Position numbers and translations under genes: made by a program. Source: Candidatus Omnitrophota bacterium (GTDB taxonomy: Bacteria; Omnitrophota; Gorgyraeia; Zapsychrales; Fredricksoniimonadaceae). Taken from it: 32,717 bases of DNA. Location: NCBI GenBank assembly GCA_023247575.1, contig JAHFGE010000005.1, positions 1 through 32,717 of the forward strand, read 5' to 3'. Below are positions 1 through 5,089 of the stretch, in pieces (the first letter of the stretch is position 1; every line of letters starts with the position of its first letter). The notes beneath the pieces are model-generated. The model was not told the origin of the DNA and searched no databases. It saw nothing but the letters and a program-made list of their open reading frames with translations.

Positions 1-855
1 CCGGACCTGGTAGCGCATTATAAGAAATTGAAAGAAATGGCGGAGGTATTGAAAAAGCTAGCGGATGATACGTTGGCTTTTTCATCCCGGGCGGCCGCCA
101 ATGCCCCCGACGCGGCGATGTCCGCCAGCAACAAAGTTTCTGGCGAGATCTTGCCAATTGGTCAAAGACCAATTGGCGGAACGGCGACGAAGGGTACTGG
201 TGAGGAAAAAATTTTTAACCTTAGGGATCTGCCAAGCAGGGAGACTCCTCAATTTACAGAGGCGCAAGAGGCAGTCAGGCAATCTTTAGGGGATCTCCCC
301 CGGTTGGGAATGACTGTTCGCTTGGAGCAAGCCCTTAACAACTTGGGTTGGGAACTAAATCCGAGGAACCCAGGAAGAAAGGCAAGTATTGAGGCCCTGC
401 AAAGCGCTAGGCCAGGGGATGTTATTTTATCTTCTACAACAAGTGAAGGAACATTAAGTAAGGGTGATGCTGAAGATAGGGTAACGGACACCTCTATTGT
501 TTATGTGGCATCTTCAGCGGTCACGGAGAGACGCATTTTTGTTTTAGTTGAGAGCCCCAAAAATCCTACAGCGGCGCCGATGCCATGGGAGCGTGGTAAT
601 CGTGCCCCGGCGAGTGATAAGATTATGAAAGGTGGTATCGACTTCAATAGCCGCAACATGCAGATGGATGTTAATCCTTCGATCACACTCAGGATTAACC
701 CTGAGCGAAGTCGAAGGGTTAATGGCGAGAAGATTGATATCCGTTTTGACCCAGCCATGGTTGAGCAGTTCAAACGCGGCGATTTCACCGGCGTGCGGCC
801 GGTGATCCTCAACATCACGCCGATTCCAAGCCTATATTTTTTATTTGACATTTAA
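1..855 (+). CDS. Hypothetical protein, 5'-partial; C-terminal GGIDFN...FDPAM...PVILNITP domain
   Basis: Frame 1 is open from base 1 (PDLVAHYKKL...) through the TTG at 28 to TAA at 853-855, so the gene probably starts upstream of the window. GGIDFN is at 631-648. No enzyme motif recognised. Confidence 0.75.
   Translation, partial: PDLVAHYKKLKEMAEVLKKLADDTLAFSSRAAANAPDAAMSASNKVSGEILPIGQRPIGGTATKGTGEEKIFNLRDLPSRETPQFTEAQEAVRQSLGDLPRLGMTVRLEQALNNLGWELNPRNPGRKASIEALQSARPGDVILSSTTSEGTLSKGDAEDRVTDTSIVYVASSAVTERRIFVLVESPKNPTAAPMPWERGNRAPASDKIMKGGIDFNSRNMQMDVNPSITLRINPERSRRVNGEKIDIRFDPAMVEQFKRGDFTGVRPVILNITPIPSLYFLFDI
151..179. repeat. Intragenic palindrome (CCGCC/GGCGG-like family)
   Basis: gccaattggtc (153-163) - aaa - gaccaattggc (167-177), a perfect 11-bp inverted repeat extendable by two G.T pairs; encodes LPIGQRPIG. 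Confidence 0.7.
670..723. repeat. Double-hairpin element, copy 1 (in-frame intragenic insertion)
   Basis: gttaat-cct-tcgatcacactc-agg-attaac-cct-gagcgaagtcga-agg-gttaat; gttaat direct repeat at 670-675 and 718-723 (48 bp apart), its reverse complement attaac at 694-699. Confidence 0.85.
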
Positions 856-872
856 CCCTTTTTTGCCATAAT
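845..872 (+). promoter_or_regulatory. Sigma70-like promoter for rpsA-tyrS
   Basis: TTGACA 845-850, 16-bp spacer, TGn plus CATAAT 867-872; 80 bp upstream of rpsA ATG; overlaps the last codons of the upstream ORF. Confidence 0.6.
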
Positions 873-893
873 GGCCGCTTATCCCTACCGCTT

Positions 894-913
894 TGCCCCG
901 CCCTGGCGGGGCA
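894..913. repeat. GC-rich hairpin in rpsA leader (CCGCC/GGCGG family)
   Basis: tgccccgcc-ct-ggcggggca, 9-bp inverted repeat, no U-tract. Confidence 0.6.
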
Positions 914-952
914 GTGGGGAAATTCCAATCGAAAGAAAAGAGGATTAAATAA

Positions 953-2497
953 ATGAGTACTGAAAAATCAATGATGGAGGAGCTCTATGAGAGCACCCTT
1001 AAAGATATTAAGGAAGGAGAGATTATCAAAGGCACGATCGCCGCGGTGACCCCTAAAGAAGTCATCGTTGACATCGGGTTTAAGTCCGAAGGTTTTGTTC
1101 CCATTGAGGAATTCCGCAATCCTGTCGAACTGACCGTCGGCAGTCAGATCGAAGTTCTCATTGAAAATATTGAAGATGACAATGGCCGCCTGATTCTTTC
1201 TTATGGCAAGGCTGAGCGCCTGAAAGGCTGGCAGAAAATTTCCGATGATATCAATGAAGGTGATGTTGTCGATGGCCGCGTGGTGCGCTCCGTCAAAGGC
1301 GGCTATATTGTCGATGTATTTGGCATTGAAGCTTTCCTGCCCATGTCCCTTTCCGCCTTTAAGGGCGTTTCCAACCACGATATGACCACCAAGACTTTTA
1401 AGTTTGTCGTTGCCAAGATGAACAAGCAAAGACGCAACATCATCCTTTCCCGTCGGGAAATGGTGCAGAAAGAACGTGAAGAGGTGCGCGAAAAGCTTTG
1501 GAGCGAAATCAAGAAAGGCCAGAAGCGTAAAGGCATTGTCAAAGGCATTACCGATTTCGGTGTCTTTATTGATTTAGGCGGTATCGACGGTCTTTTGCAT
1601 ATTACGGACATGAGCTGGAGCCGCATTAACCATCCTTCCGAAATCGTCTCCGTCGGCCAAAAGCTTGAAGTGTTGATCCTGGATTTTGACAAAGAGAATT
1701 CCAAAGTTTCTTTGGGGTTAAAACAGATTGTGGCCAATCCCTGGGATGAGGCCGCCACCAAATATCCGGCCGGAAGCCGCATCCAGGGCAAGATCGTCAA
1801 CATCATGCCTTATGGTGTATTTGTGGAGATTGACAAAGGCATTGAAGGCCTTTTGCATGCCTCGGAAATCAGCTGGCAAAAAAAGATGGTTAATCCCCAG
1901 GAAATGTTTGAATTAGGCGATATGATTGAAGTGCAAATTATCAATGTGGACAAGGATGCCAAGCGCATTTCATTGAGCATGAAACAGCTGGAAGAGAACC
2001 CCTGGCGTACAGCCGCCCAAAAATTTAATGTAGGCGATAAAGTCAAAGGGATTGTGCGTGGCTTTACCGATTACGGTGCTTTCGTCGAACTAGAAGGCGG
2101 TTTAGAGGGCATGATCCATGTTTCCGATATATCCTGGACCAGGAAAATCAACCATCCTCAGGAAGTCTTGCATAAAGGCCAAGGGGTGGAGGTGATGGTC
2201 CAGGGGGTCGATGTAGAAAACCGTAAAATTACATTGGGCTTAAAGCAATTGCAGCCAAATCCATGGAATGACATTGCCCAGAAATTTCCGATAGGTTCCC
2301 TCGTCACTGCGGAAGTTGTGATGAATTCCAACTTTGGCGTATTTGTCAAATTAGAAGGGGATATTGAAGCCCTGGTCTATTCTTCCGAAATCGACAAACA
2401 ACAGGCTGCTGCTTTAAAACCTGGCGATCAACTGCAGGTGAAAGTCATTAAAGTTGACGTCGAAGGTATGAAAATCGGCGTTTCGGCGAGGTTGTAG
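953..2497 (+). CDS. rpsA: 30S ribosomal protein S1
   Basis: 514 aa; repeated S1 domains (VDIGFKSEG, DFGVFIDLGGIDGLLHITDMSW, IEGLLHASEISW, LEGMIHVSDISW); GAGGA SD upstream. Confidence 0.97.
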   Translation: MSTEKSMMEELYESTLKDIKEGEIIKGTIAAVTPKEVIVDIGFKSEGFVPIEEFRNPVELTVGSQIEVLIENIEDDNGRLILSYGKAERLKGWQKISDDINEGDVVDGRVVRSVKGGYIVDVFGIEAFLPMSLSAFKGVSNHDMTTKTFKFVVAKMNKQRRNIILSRREMVQKEREEVREKLWSEIKKGQKRKGIVKGITDFGVFIDLGGIDGLLHITDMSWSRINHPSEIVSVGQKLEVLILDFDKENSKVSLGLKQIVANPWDEAATKYPAGSRIQGKIVNIMPYGVFVEIDKGIEGLLHASEISWQKKMVNPQEMFELGDMIEVQIINVDKDAKRISLSMKQLEENPWRTAAQKFNVGDKVKGIVRGFTDYGAFVELEGGLEGMIHVSDISWTRKINHPQEVLHKGQGVEVMVQGVDVENRKITLGLKQLQPNPWNDIAQKFPIGSLVTAEVVMNSNFGVFVKLEGDIEALVYSSEIDKQQAAALKPGDQLQVKVIKVDVEGMKIGVSARL

Positions 2498-2506
2498 TTT
2501 TAAATC

Positions 2507-3655
2507 ATGTCCATCCCGGAAATGATCCAAAAACTGTCCTGTGGTGCCACCGAAATCATTCATAGCGATGATTTAGCCAAAAAGCTGGCTCTTAAGCGTC
2601 CGTTGGTTGTTAAGGCTGGTTTCGATCCCACCGCACCGGATATTCACTTAGGGCATGTGGTTTTGCTTAAGAAAATGCGGCAATTTCAAGACTTTGGTCA
2701 CAAAGTTGTCTTTTTAATTGGAGACTTTACGGCCCAGGTCGGAGACCCCTCCGGCCGCAATGAATTACGCAAGAGAATGTCGCCCCAGGAGATTGAACAA
2801 AACGCCAAAACCTATAAGGCCCAAGTTTTTAAAATTTTAGATTCCCAAAAAATCGAAGTCGTTTTCAACAGCCATTGGTTAAATAAGCTTAGCCCTCAGG
2901 ACCTGCTCGAGCTAAGCGCTCATTTGACCGTAGCCCAAATGCTGGCCCGCGCCGATTTCAAGAAACGTTTTGAATCCGGACGGGAAATTAGTTTATTGGA
3001 ATTCATTTATCCGCTTTTGCAGGGGTATGATTCCGTGCACTTGAAAGCCGACGTGGAATTAGGCGGCACTGATCAGAAGTTTAATTTACTGATGGGCCGT
3101 CAATTGCAGGAAAGTTATGGACAGCCGCCACAGGTGGTTGTGATGACACCGTTACTGGAAGGTACTGACGGAGTGCAGAAGATGAGCAAGTCGCTGGGCA
3201 ATGATATCGGCATTAATGAAGCGCCCAATGAGATCTTTGGCAAGGTCATGTCCATCAGCGATGAATTGATGTTTCGTTATTATGAACTTTTGACTGATAT
3301 GGATTTGGCCGTAGTGAAAAAGCTCCATCCTAAAGAAGCAAAGCTGCAGTTAGCCCAGGCTATGGTGGAAATGTTCCACACAAAAGCCCAAGGGCCAAAG
3401 GCACGCGAACATTTTGAACACACCTTCAGCCAGCATCAACTGCCGCAGGACATTCCTGAATATCAAATCCATCCCGGCCAAAAATTGCCGGACATTCTCA
3501 TGGCAGCCAAAGTGGTGCTTTCCAAGAATGATGCCCGCCGCTTGCTTCAAGAGAAGGCCATCACCTTTCAGGATACAGTCCTTATGGATGAACACTGGTT
3601 TCCTCAGCCAGGCATCCTCAAAATCGGCAAACGCCGTTTTTTGCGATTAAAATAA
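2507..3655 (+). CDS. tyrS: Tyrosine--tRNA ligase
   Basis: GFDPTAPDIHLGH (HIGH), YPLLQGYD, ELGGTDQKFN, KMSKS and a C-terminal S4-like tail ending IGKRRF. Confidence 0.97.
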   Translation: MSIPEMIQKLSCGATEIIHSDDLAKKLALKRPLVVKAGFDPTAPDIHLGHVVLLKKMRQFQDFGHKVVFLIGDFTAQVGDPSGRNELRKRMSPQEIEQNAKTYKAQVFKILDSQKIEVVFNSHWLNKLSPQDLLELSAHLTVAQMLARADFKKRFESGREISLLEFIYPLLQGYDSVHLKADVELGGTDQKFNLLMGRQLQESYGQPPQVVVMTPLLEGTDGVQKMSKSLGNDIGINEAPNEIFGKVMSISDELMFRYYELLTDMDLAVVKKLHPKEAKLQLAQAMVEMFHTKAQGPKAREHFEHTFSQHQLPQDIPEYQIHPGQKLPDILMAAKVVLSKNDARRLLQEKAITFQDTVLMDEHWFPQPGILKIGKRRFLRLK

Positions 3656-3677
3656 AATTAAAAGTTAAAATTATTTC

Positions 3678-3706
3678 TTGACATTATTTTTGGTGACGCA
3701 TATACT
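3678..3706 (+). promoter_or_regulatory. Strong sigma70 promoter for the tRNA-Thr-rpmG-secE-nusG cluster
   Basis: TTGACA 3678-3683, 17-bp spacer, TATACT 3701-3706; A/T-rich UP-like tract immediately upstream. Confidence 0.8.
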
Positions 3707-3759
3707 TCTGGTTCATTTAAAAAGGCTGCAGGCGGCCTAAAGCTTGTGGGAAAGCAAAA

Positions 3760-3814
3760 TTGAATACATTCATTACACTCAGTATTCAACCCTGAGTGTA
3801 ATCGAAGGGTTGAA
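3760..3814. repeat. Double-hairpin element, copy 2 (tRNA-Thr leader)
   Basis: ttgaa-tac-attcattacactca-gta-ttcaa-ccct-gagtgtaatcga-aggg-ttgaa; ttgaa at 3760-3764 and 3810-3814, ttcaa at 3785-3789. Confidence 0.85.
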
Positions 3815-3819
3815 CCACT

Positions 3820-3892
3820 GCCCCTGTAGCTCAGTTGGTAGAGCACGTCCTTGGTAAGGACGAGGCCAGCGGTTCAATCCCGCTCGGGGGCT
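3820..3892 (+). tRNA. tRNA-Thr(GGT)
   Basis: Cloverleaf: acceptor gcccctg/cgggggc, D arm gctc/gagc, anticodon arm cgtcc-ttGGTaa-ggacg, T arm agcgg-ttcaatc-ccgct; CCA not encoded. Confidence 0.96.
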
Positions 3893-3918
3893 TAAGGCTT
3901 AAAAAATCTCTTCTGTGA

Positions 3919-3941
3919 CTCCGCCACGATGTATGGCGGAG
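3919..3941. repeat. Hairpin between tRNA-Thr and rpmG (CCGCC/GGCGG family)
   Basis: ctccgcca-cgatgta-tggcggag, 8-bp stem, followed by gagcgcgaa rather than a U-tract. Confidence 0.6.
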
Positions 3942-3964
3942 GAGCGCGAAAGTTAAGAAACGTT

Positions 3965-4117
3965 ATGCGCGAGACAATTCATTTTCAGTGCACCGAGTGT
4001 CATCGTATCAATTATAACAGTACTAAAGATAAAAGAAAAAATCCGGAACGTCTGGAATTAAAAAAATTCTGTCCGTTTTGCCGTAAACACACCATCCACA
4101 AAGAGACGAAGAAGTGA
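3965..4117 (+). CDS. rpmG: 50S ribosomal protein L33 (Zn-ribbon, C+ type)
   Basis: [12 protein letters not shown]...NY...[19 protein letters not shown]; start moved from 3929 to ATG 3965 to match family length (50 aa). Confidence 0.95.
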
Positions 4118-4144
4118 AGGCCTTAAAATAACGCAGGAGTTCAT

Positions 4145-4218
4145 AGGCCTGTAGCTCCAATTGGTAGAGCGACGGTCTCCAAAACCGTGCGTTGCAGGTT
4201 CGAGTCCTGCCAGGCCTG
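4145..4218 (+). tRNA. tRNA-Trp(CCA)
   Basis: Acceptor aggcctg/caggcct, anticodon arm acggt-ctCCAaa-accgt, T arm gcagg-ttcgagt-cctgc; usual position between rpmG and secE; 3' CCA not encoded. Confidence 0.96.
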
Positions 4219-4275
4219 TTAATGAGATCCAAACTTATGGAGCGAAACGAACATAAGTTTGGAGAGCGAATTAAC
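4218..4275. repeat. Nested hairpin with GAGCGAA loop directly after tRNA-Trp
   Basis: Inner 12-bp stem tccaaacttatg (4228-4239)/cataagtttgga (4252-4263), loop gagcgaaacgaa; outer stem gttaat (4218-4223)/attaac (4270-4275). Confidence 0.75.
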
Positions 4276-4301
4276 CCCGCCAACTGCGGGATATTCATTA
4301 C

Positions 4302-4487
4302 ATGATTACTAAAGTTCAAAATTTTATTGGAGAAGTGCTAGCGGAGATGAAAAAAGTCTCCTGGGTCACCCGTCAAGACCTGATTGATTCGGCATTAATT
4401 GTGGTGGTCAGTTCTCTATTATTAGGTTTGTTTTTAGCCGTCGTCGACTTTGTTCTTTCCAAAGGTATCGCCCATTTAATAAGGTAA
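4302..4487 (+). CDS. secE: Preprotein translocase subunit SecE
   Basis: 61 aa, EMKKVSW motif followed by one hydrophobic segment; upstream of nusG. Confidence 0.95.
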   Translation: MITKVQNFIGEVLAEMKKVSWVTRQDLIDSALIVVVSSLLLGLFLAVVDFVLSKGIAHLIR

Positions 4488-4494
4488 AGAATTT

Positions 4495-4568
4495 ATGACC
4501 CATTCGACTTCGCTCAGGGTCATCCTGAGCGAACAACGAATAAATTAAGGAAGTGAGTCGAAGGATGA
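4495..4568. repeat. Double-hairpin element, copy 3 (overlaps nusG start)
   Basis: atgaccc-attcgacttcgctca-gggtcat (4495-4523), then tcatcct (4520-4526) pairing with aggatga (4562-4568) around an expanded loop gagcgaa...gagtcga. Confidence 0.8.
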
Positions 4569-5089
4569 AATGGTATGTTGTGCATACACAAACAGGTGCG
4601 GAGGAAAGGGCCAGGGCAGGCTTGGAAAGTCGTATGGCTACAACGCCCTTAAAGCAATACGTGCAAGAAGTTGTTGTCCCAACGGAGCAGGTTTCTGAGG
4701 TGCGCGGTGGGAAAAAACGGATCACCACCCGTAAGTTTTTTCCGGGGTATCTTTTAATTAAGATGGAGATGAATAAAGAAAGCTGGTATCTGGTCAAGAC
4801 CACTCCGGGGATTACTGGTTTTATCGGTCCAGGGCGTCAGCCTCAACCCCTGACGGATGCAGAGGTCGACAATATCTTGAAGCGTACGGAAGAGACGGGT
4901 ACAAAGCCTTCTCCTAAGATTGTGTTCGAAGTAGGAGAGGCTGTTCGTATCGCGCAAGGGCCATTTGCGAATTTTAGCGGTTCGGTCATGGAAGTGTATC
5001 CTGAACGTGGAAAATTAAAGGTTAGCGTATCGATTTTCGGTCGTTCGACGCTGGTTGAACTGGAGTATTGGCAGGTAGAAAAAATTTAA
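4565..5089 (+). CDS. nusG: Transcription termination/antitermination factor NusG
   Basis: KWYVVHT, FFPGYLL, TPGITGF, KOW domain GPFANFSG, IFGRST. ATG 4565 preferred; in-frame GTG 4553 is the alternative. Confidence 0.96.
   Translation: MKWYVVHTQTGAEERARAGLESRMATTPLKQYVQEVVVPTEQVSEVRGGKKRITTRKFFPGYLLIKMEMNKESWYLVKTTPGITGFIGPGRQPQPLTDAEVDNILKRTEETGTKPSPKIVFEVGEAVRIAQGPFANFSGSVMEVYPERGKLKVSVSIFGRSTLVELEYWQVEKI

Follow-up and report, generated by a model that had tools for sequence, protein, structure and literature searches.

To our knowledge, selfish DNA carried in frame within genes is a textbook matter only for Rickettsia. The palindromic elements of that genus (RPEs) are described as selfish DNA of about 150 bp that sits in frame in unrelated, working protein-coding genes and is read through as extra peptide (PMC10969869). 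IS608 is reported to insert 3' of TTAC, which is read by an internal guide, AAAG, and the tetranucleotide is needed for the next round (PMC5027513). REPs are described as short palindromic repeats, two inverted units forming the one long hairpin of a REPIN, and are linked to RAYT (TnpA-REP) transposases (PMC8266576, PMC3479197), and the SRM or NTS repeats as hairpins of 20-50 nt, found in many phyla and cut by SsnA-family GIY-YIG single-strand nucleases (PMC11893778). Here we analyzed a palindromic element of 48 nt in a 32,717-nt stretch of DNA from a Candidatus Omnitrophota bacterium (GenBank assembly GCA_023247575.1, contig JAHFGE010000005.1), hereafter the window, which is contig C164 of genome G000 in our numbering; the genome is fragmented (1.50 Mb in 166 contigs) and 87% complete. 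We conclude, with a probability of about 0.8, that positions 676-723 are a copy of a non-autonomous palindromic mobile element of 48 nt, inserted at a TTAA-type tetranucleotide in the variable loop of a protein domain that we call GGIDxN.

Two copies of the hexamer GTTAAT, at 670-675 and 718-723, stand exactly 48 nt apart from start to start, as a first-pass annotation of this DNA had claimed. Between these flanks we read CCTTCGATCACACTCAGG (676-693), ATTAAC (694-699) and CCTGAGCGAAGTCGAAGG (700-717), an interval that can also be written as CCTTCGAtcacaCTCAGG, then ATTAAC, then CCTGAGcgaagTCGAAGG. Because the flank repeat leaves the boundary ambiguous, the element may be bounded at 676-723 or equally at 670-717. 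The 42-nt core matched the window once when up to 3 mismatches were allowed, and 0 of 100 shuffles gave any match. The element RNA is predicted to fold into a long hairpin of -29.7 kcal/mol (z = -4.96), with 0 of 200 shuffles folding as well, and four of its six reading frames are free of stop codons. A search of positions 1-5000 against Rfam, with E up to 1, found two tRNAs only and no match at the element.

The open reading frame (ORF) that hosts this copy encodes the C-terminal portion of a large protein of Omnitrophota, and it reads ...NMQMDVN-PSITLRINPERSRRVN-GEKIDIRFDPAM... across the element. Its last ~75 residues form the conserved C-terminal domain GGIDxN...FDPAM...PVILNITPI. Of 41 related genomes, 25 (this one among them) have the domain at the end of open frames, the longest reaching 3,907 aa, and some homologues bear UDPGP (UDP-glucose pyrophosphorylase), hexokinase, phosphoglucomutase or receiver domains. 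Neither the host ORF nor the domain itself was matched by a Pfam or NCBIfam model. In a protein search the domain was seen at the end of Omnitrophota proteins of 598-1,827 aa.

To the host ORF we aligned the 11 best GGIDxN domains from relatives. The gap at the insert was exactly 16 residues in 10 of the 11 and 14 residues in the other, an uninterrupted example being NMKIDVD-GQKIDIRFDPAM. Sequence was conserved and in frame on both sides of the insert, with FDPAMVEQFKRGDFTGVRPVILN identical in homologue L002 and invariant residues on the two sides that include GGID, G58, F73, G76, F78, G80, P83 and I85. The 16-aa gap had been predicted in the first-pass annotation, which also held that the frame would stay intact if the insert were removed; the ORF is indeed open over 1-855 and 48 nt equals 16 codons, so the reading frame is the same with or without the element. 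None of the 11 domains retained an alignable 16-aa segment without the palindrome. Within the same genome, paralogues on C3, C6, C132, C97, C71, C62 and C153 showed gaps of 14-16 aa, and three others (C1, C84 and C157) held a short unrelated segment at the insert loop, leaving a gap of 5 aa relative to the host ORF. The sequence at homologous sites is GTT-NAT-GG or ATT-AAT-GG, which would fit a pre-existing TTAA.

In two paralogous GGIDxN domains (C58 42973-43215 and C84 6234-6470) the insert loop is occupied by a repeat-like insert of another kind (PSTRPDGLAQGEP...). Since paralogues hold unrelated segments or other repeat-like inserts at this point, the insert position is a variable loop, and it looks like a hot spot for repeat-like DNA. 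The host ORF lacked the tail of ~10-29 residues, often acidic, that follows LLGL in 11 of 11 aligned homologues.

The element recurs elsewhere in the genome. Exact copies of the right arm CCTGAGCGAAGTCGAAGG numbered 8, and 35 matches were found when up to 3 mismatches were allowed (reversed genome: 0 and 1, respectively); the two-arm form, with up to 2 mismatches, was present in 9 copies against 0 for a reversed-pattern control. The arms of the copies on C164, C15, C58 and C158 showed at most one difference in 36 positions, which argues for recent spread. Six of the 9 two-arm copies lay in open stretches of at least 284 aa, and homologue gaps confirmed four of these as well as the host-ORF copy. 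For RuvB (C90), all 6 orthologues found among 7 genus genomes were 16 aa shorter; for TatD (C158), 6 of 6 homologues lacked ~16 residues, as did 5 of the 5 homologues examined of a TolC-like gene (C26); and a membrane protein on C131 had three paralogues, all without 15-16 aa. A giant ORF on C163 had no homologue in the genus, so its in-gene copy is unconfirmed. The in-gene copies used all four stop-free frames in both orientations and gave unrelated peptides, a pattern that fits random insertion followed by loss of frame-breaking copies. Such peptides had been put forward in the first-pass annotation as the footprint of the element in the proteome, and they were present: in a six-frame, stop-to-stop reading of the genome PERSRR occurred 10 times, LSEVEG 8 times and PSTSLR 8 times, with 2, 1 and 2 occurrences, respectively, inside open stretches of at least 200 aa.

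Two of the occupied genes allowed us to read the site before insertion. RuvB orthologues read CAA GTC AA[AG] GCN, once, and 3 of the 6 have GTCAA; the filled site reads CAA GTCAAT-[arm]-ATTGAC-[arm]-GTCAAG GCC. TolC-like orthologues read CCN CTG A[CG]N, with CTGA present once in 3 of 5, and the filled site reads CCG CTGAT-[arm]-ATCAGT-[arm]-ACTGAC C. The TatD site was too variable to be read for a prior tetranucleotide. With a single tetranucleotide in the RuvB and TolC-like orthologues, the flank tetranucleotide at these two sites existed before the element arrived and the net gain was exactly 48 nt.

The flank repeat is real, and it is more than the simple boundary that GTTAAT had been taken for in the first-pass annotation, since in nearly every copy the flank tetranucleotide matches the central loop. 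We assembled a gap-free covariation set of 38 distinct two-arm copies from at least 6 phyla (15 from the search of family genomes, 23 from a public scan). These copies were selected by arm motifs only, the linker columns standing outside the search pattern. The first flank and the loop were paired in 83.8% of cells versus 66.8% after shuffling (score 0.485 versus 0.202), and the loop and the second flank in 85.0% versus 67.1% (0.527 versus 0.196); in both cases 0 of 500 shuffles did as well, and slid controls scored no higher than 0.193. Pairing of the two flanks with each other, as in a long hairpin, showed no covariation above controls in this set (0.135 versus 0.115, 13 of 500 shuffles). 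At least 8 linker alleles were present (TTAAT, TTGAT, TCAAT, TCAGT, TTAGT, TTGGC, CCAGT and CAAAT), and the copies on C15 and C158 had identical arms (36 of 36) with three coordinated linker changes. Beyond the central 4 nt, flank identity was at chance by our reading of the table, 5 of 17 linker-rule copies matching per outer position.

Outside this genome the distribution was patchy. The two-arm form occurred in 4 of 61 family genomes, with 9 copies in G000, 3 in G002, 2 in G076 and 1 in G043. We also used an exact two-arm pattern of 26 fixed bases, for which ~0.0003 chance matches are expected in 596 Gb by our own arithmetic. It matched 27 public loci, 13 of them in Omnitrophota; other two-arm loci fell in Dehalococcoidia (5, on one chromosome), Anaerolineae/Anaerolinea (3), Planctomycetia (3), Gloeobacterales (2), Thermodesulfovibrionia (1) and Patescibacteria (1). 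Searched by itself, the 18-nt arm gave at least 125 loci spread over many phyla, most of them single units set in other contexts, and because ~17 such loci are expected by chance we place weight only on two-arm matches. Among copies in other phyla, 2 of 27 loci had at least 60 aa open on both sides, a test that would miss copies lying as near a gene end as the host-ORF copy; with so few loci deep in an ORF, an in-gene location is not the family rule outside this lineage. An exact 35-nt search of genome contigs returned 0 loci. Among the papers listed by a literature search for the arms and for the peptides LSEVEG, PELVEG and LSLSKG there were primer-type matches only, none with the peptides, and those listed by a search on in-frame palindromic elements in protein-coding genes and Omnitrophota included no paper on the element, supplements lying outside the coverage of both.

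How such an element might move can be proposed tentatively. We suggest, at somewhat less than even odds, that it moves as a folded single strand, with its 6-nt loop or the matching 3' end pairing with, or having to equal, the target tetranucleotide. The apparent target duplication would then consist of the target plus the element's own matching end, and the process would resemble IS200/IS605 transposition, in which an internal guide reads a tetranucleotide and the element goes in 3' of it. The copy in the host ORF probably survives through its length of 16 codons, its four stop-free frames and a loop that tolerates extra residues. A more specific proposal, that the element is a self-guided mini-transposon, a DNA hairpin of 44-48 nt whose 6-nt loop pairs with a single-stranded target and sets the landing site, we regard as doubtful. 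If it were true, a change of loop would retarget the element, and no smaller mobile DNA with a programmable target would be known; it would be spread over several phyla and able to write segments of 8 or 16 residues into essential proteins.

The main rival is a classical miniature inverted-repeat transposable element (MITE), in which a DDE-type transposase would act on the inverted repeats CCTTCGA/TCGAAGG and cut with a 4-nt stagger at a preferred TYAR site, duplicating the target, and the loop match would arise later by selection or hairpin repair. Such an origin accommodates the terminal inverted repeats, a 4-nt flank repeat that is single at empty sites, the chance-level identity of the outer flank positions and the likeness of the target tetramers (TTAA, TTAG, TCAA, TCAG). 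It gives no reason, however, for the covariation of loop and flank that 0 of 500 shuffles reproduced, plain target duplication not predicting a matching loop, and it leaves unexplained the copy on C158, where 0 of 36 arm positions have changed and the loop is already matched to the new flank. Nor was there a gene-length-spaced inverted pair of arms, as a MITE parent would show, in the arm-match list of this 87%-complete, fragmented genome. We consider this origin unlikely overall.

Co-option of the unit by the host, as an mRNA hairpin that tunes translation or stability or as a 16-aa peptide with a function in the protein, would suit the strong predicted hairpin, the conservation of the cores across phyla and the occurrence, in an RNA library from this sample, of deeply covered right-arm 31-mers with 2 differences, although these 31-mers are not assignable to this organism or locus. 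Against this, the same module occurs in genes unrelated to one another, in either orientation and in each of the four open frames, and yields unrelated peptides; the orthologues that we found of RuvB, TatD and the TolC-like gene lack it, and it is patchy even within the family (4 of 61 genomes). Differences in frame, orientation and host, together with orthologues that do without the insert, thus make a co-opted function unlikely, and we hold it to be a very slim prospect. Slimmer still, to the point of being barely credible, is an old lineage-specific loop that is palindromic by chance, or an assembly chimera joined through the repeat. A chimera or old loop would fit the Logan contig that covers 300-714 and ends inside the element, no listed piece spanning it, and the failure to find an orthologue of the host gene; the sequencing data consist of one DNA set, possibly from the groundwater source sample, as contigs only, of which none joins across the element, and no RNA set was listed. 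Breaks of this kind are, however, expected at repeated 31-mers in Logan contigs, a single conserved domain runs on exactly from one side of the insert to the other, and near-identical 48-nt copies stand elsewhere in the genome. An integron attC site was dropped by inspection, the flanks being direct repeats, not inverted, and freely varying.

Several points weigh against insertion of a mobile element as we read it and against its proposed movement. We found no true orthologue of the host gene, relatives sharing the C-terminal domain only and one paralogue in the same genome the N-terminus, and a metagenome scan for the host gene gave 3 loci, all domain-only; the empty site of the host-ORF copy is therefore deduced from paralogous or diverged domains. 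The 16 residues PSITLRINPERSRRVN are a predicted translated passenger and no evolved part of the domain, translation being read here from the DNA. We call the insert position a putative surface loop from variability in the alignment, the AlphaFold2 model built on a 12-row alignment being poor (mean pLDDT 56.3, pTM 0.27, residues 38-57, insert included, below 50). The shuffle results are tempered by the tool's own caveat that relatedness among the sequences can be enough to exceed column shuffles in the absence of constraint. The flank-loop rule does not hold for every one of the 38 copies; in those of Dehalococcoidia, for instance, the flanks pair with each other, and a classical 4-bp target duplication plus one compensating loop change would also yield the pattern on C158. 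With regard to a Y1 transposase, the arm hexamer nearest to the Y1_Tnp gene of this genome is ~630 nt away from it, the enzyme and the element do not co-occur (48 of 61 family genomes versus 4 of 61), and G002, which is 94% complete, has 3 element copies and no Y1 match.

We examined candidate mobilizing enzymes in this genome and rejected a link to each. Its only Y1_Tnp gene, on C126, is without flanking arm motifs. This RAYT-like gene scored 64 bits against NF047646, below the cut-off of 80; it lies at 1423-2118 of C126 and is followed downstream by several GTCCCCGGAAAC-type direct repeats, which may be its cognate repeats. Five small single-domain GIY-YIG ORFs were seen (C92:6639, C57:737, C136:5951, C39:4144 and C142:1413), and a link to an Ssn nuclease was rejected with 0 of 5 such genes having an element arm within 700 nt. 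Membership among the SRMs was likewise rejected, the published SRM motif giving 0 matches on either strand in the three window copies. A separate repeat family, TGTCATTCCCGC...GCGGGAATCYAG, does fit that motif (19 matches versus 0 in a reversed control) and occurs on C17, C34, C62, C64, C98, C101, C102 and others. An Ssn/SRM-type system may thus be present in this Omnitrophota genome.

Features of the window that bear on the element, with coordinates on the 32,717-nt stretch.
Feature	Position	Strand	Remark
Left flank repeat L1, GTTAAT	670-675	+	TTAA core, probable pre-existing target tetranucleotide
Left arm, CCTTCGA-tcaca-CTCAGG	676-693	+	
Central loop L2, ATTAAC	694-699	+	Reverse complement of both flanks
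Right arm, CCTGAG-cgaag-TCGAAGG	700-717	+	Most conserved 18-mer of the family
Right flank repeat L3, GTTAAT	718-723	+	
Host ORF	1-855	+	Frame 1, 284 aa plus stop (853-855); 5' end cut by contig start
Conserved C-terminal domain, GGIDFN to end, bearing the insert	631-852	+	From alignment of homologues
Decayed copy 2	3767-3814	+	Intergenic, just upstream of tRNA-Thr (3820-3892)
Copy 3	about 4495-4569	-	Precedes ORF starting MKWYVVHTQTG

The window holds two further copies, both decayed. Copy 2 has a 1-nt deletion and mismatches in its left arm, its right arm being CCTGAGTGTAATCGAAGG at 3791-3808. In copy 3, ~23 nt interrupt one arm, and the flanks and loop read ATGAC / GTCAT / ATGAA; its right flank repeat (ATGA) contains the ATG at 4565-4567 with which the MKWYVVHTQTG ORF, which we take to be nusG, begins. 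Three 31-nt metatranscriptome contigs from the same sample corresponded to 691-719 of the window with 2 differences each and a word depth of 25-175, their organism and locus being unassignable.

Other copies and element-like units were seen on further contigs. A four-unit compound copy lies between two ORFs at C58 39735-39828, presumably kdpA and kdpB judging by eye; it replaces the stop of the upstream gene and adds ~33 residues at the C-terminus, and the downstream gene starts right after it. A cluster of Flp-type pilin genes at about 10450-12700 of C102 has three members in which element-like units fall within the leader peptide, immediately ahead of the G/xxxxEY cleavage motif; in one of these pilins a 48-nt variant reads KRGQ[ALRRCSGFVTQLNKGQ]STLEY, its flank repeat being GGACAA and its loop TTTGTC. 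At C60 2196-2792 there was another RuvB fragment, which shares 81% identity with the RuvB on C90; the bin may mix two strains or hold a duplicate.

These observations place a much smaller in-frame element in a free-living candidate phylum, where it has entered RuvB, TatD and a lineage-specific protein, and they point to repeat insertion as an active means by which these genomes acquire new loop peptides. If the loop does set the target, the element would amount to a minimal programmable DNA insertion system. There is also a consequence for annotation, in that element inserts create spurious PERSRR, LSEVEG or PSTSLR peptides and break contigs at repeats.

In comparison with the known systems, the element resembles the SRMs as they are described in being a short hairpin repeat found across phyla, in a genome that holds SRM-type repeats and small GIY-YIG ORFs, but it fits neither the SRM motif nor the flanks of GIY-YIG genes. 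With REPs and REPINs, as far as their published descriptions go, it shares the form of a short palindromic repeat with two inverted units in one long hairpin. REPs are extragenic, however; of the 9 two-arm copies here, 6 lie in long open stretches, and unlike a REPIN beside its RAYT the element is not found at the flanks of this genome's RAYT-like gene. With MITEs it has in common the CCTTCGA/TCGAAGG terminal inverted repeats and a flank repeat of 4 nt.

The IS200/IS605 elements, which also have miniature derivatives known as PATEs, offer a likeness at the target: the element is hairpin-based as well, and its flank tetranucleotide, which pre-exists at the target (two sites), is complementary to its own loop. 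In IS608, from what is described of it, the guide lies 5' of the hairpin foot, whereas here it would be the loop, and a single loop would serve both ends. The element also differs from IS200/IS605 members in being only 48 nt long with no linked Y1 (HUH) transposase.

The Rickettsia parallel drawn in the first-pass annotation stands as a functional analogy and fails as an assignment to the family. Like the RPEs as described, the element is palindromic, lies in frame in protein-coding genes and is predicted to be read through. It is set apart by that same description in size, host and anatomy: 48 bp (16 aa) against about 150 bp, Omnitrophota against Rickettsia, relatives that share its architecture occurring in at least 5 other phyla, and flanks that match an internal loop. 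On these differences the element is not a member of the RPEs, and of the systems compared it is to the RPEs that it stands functionally closest.
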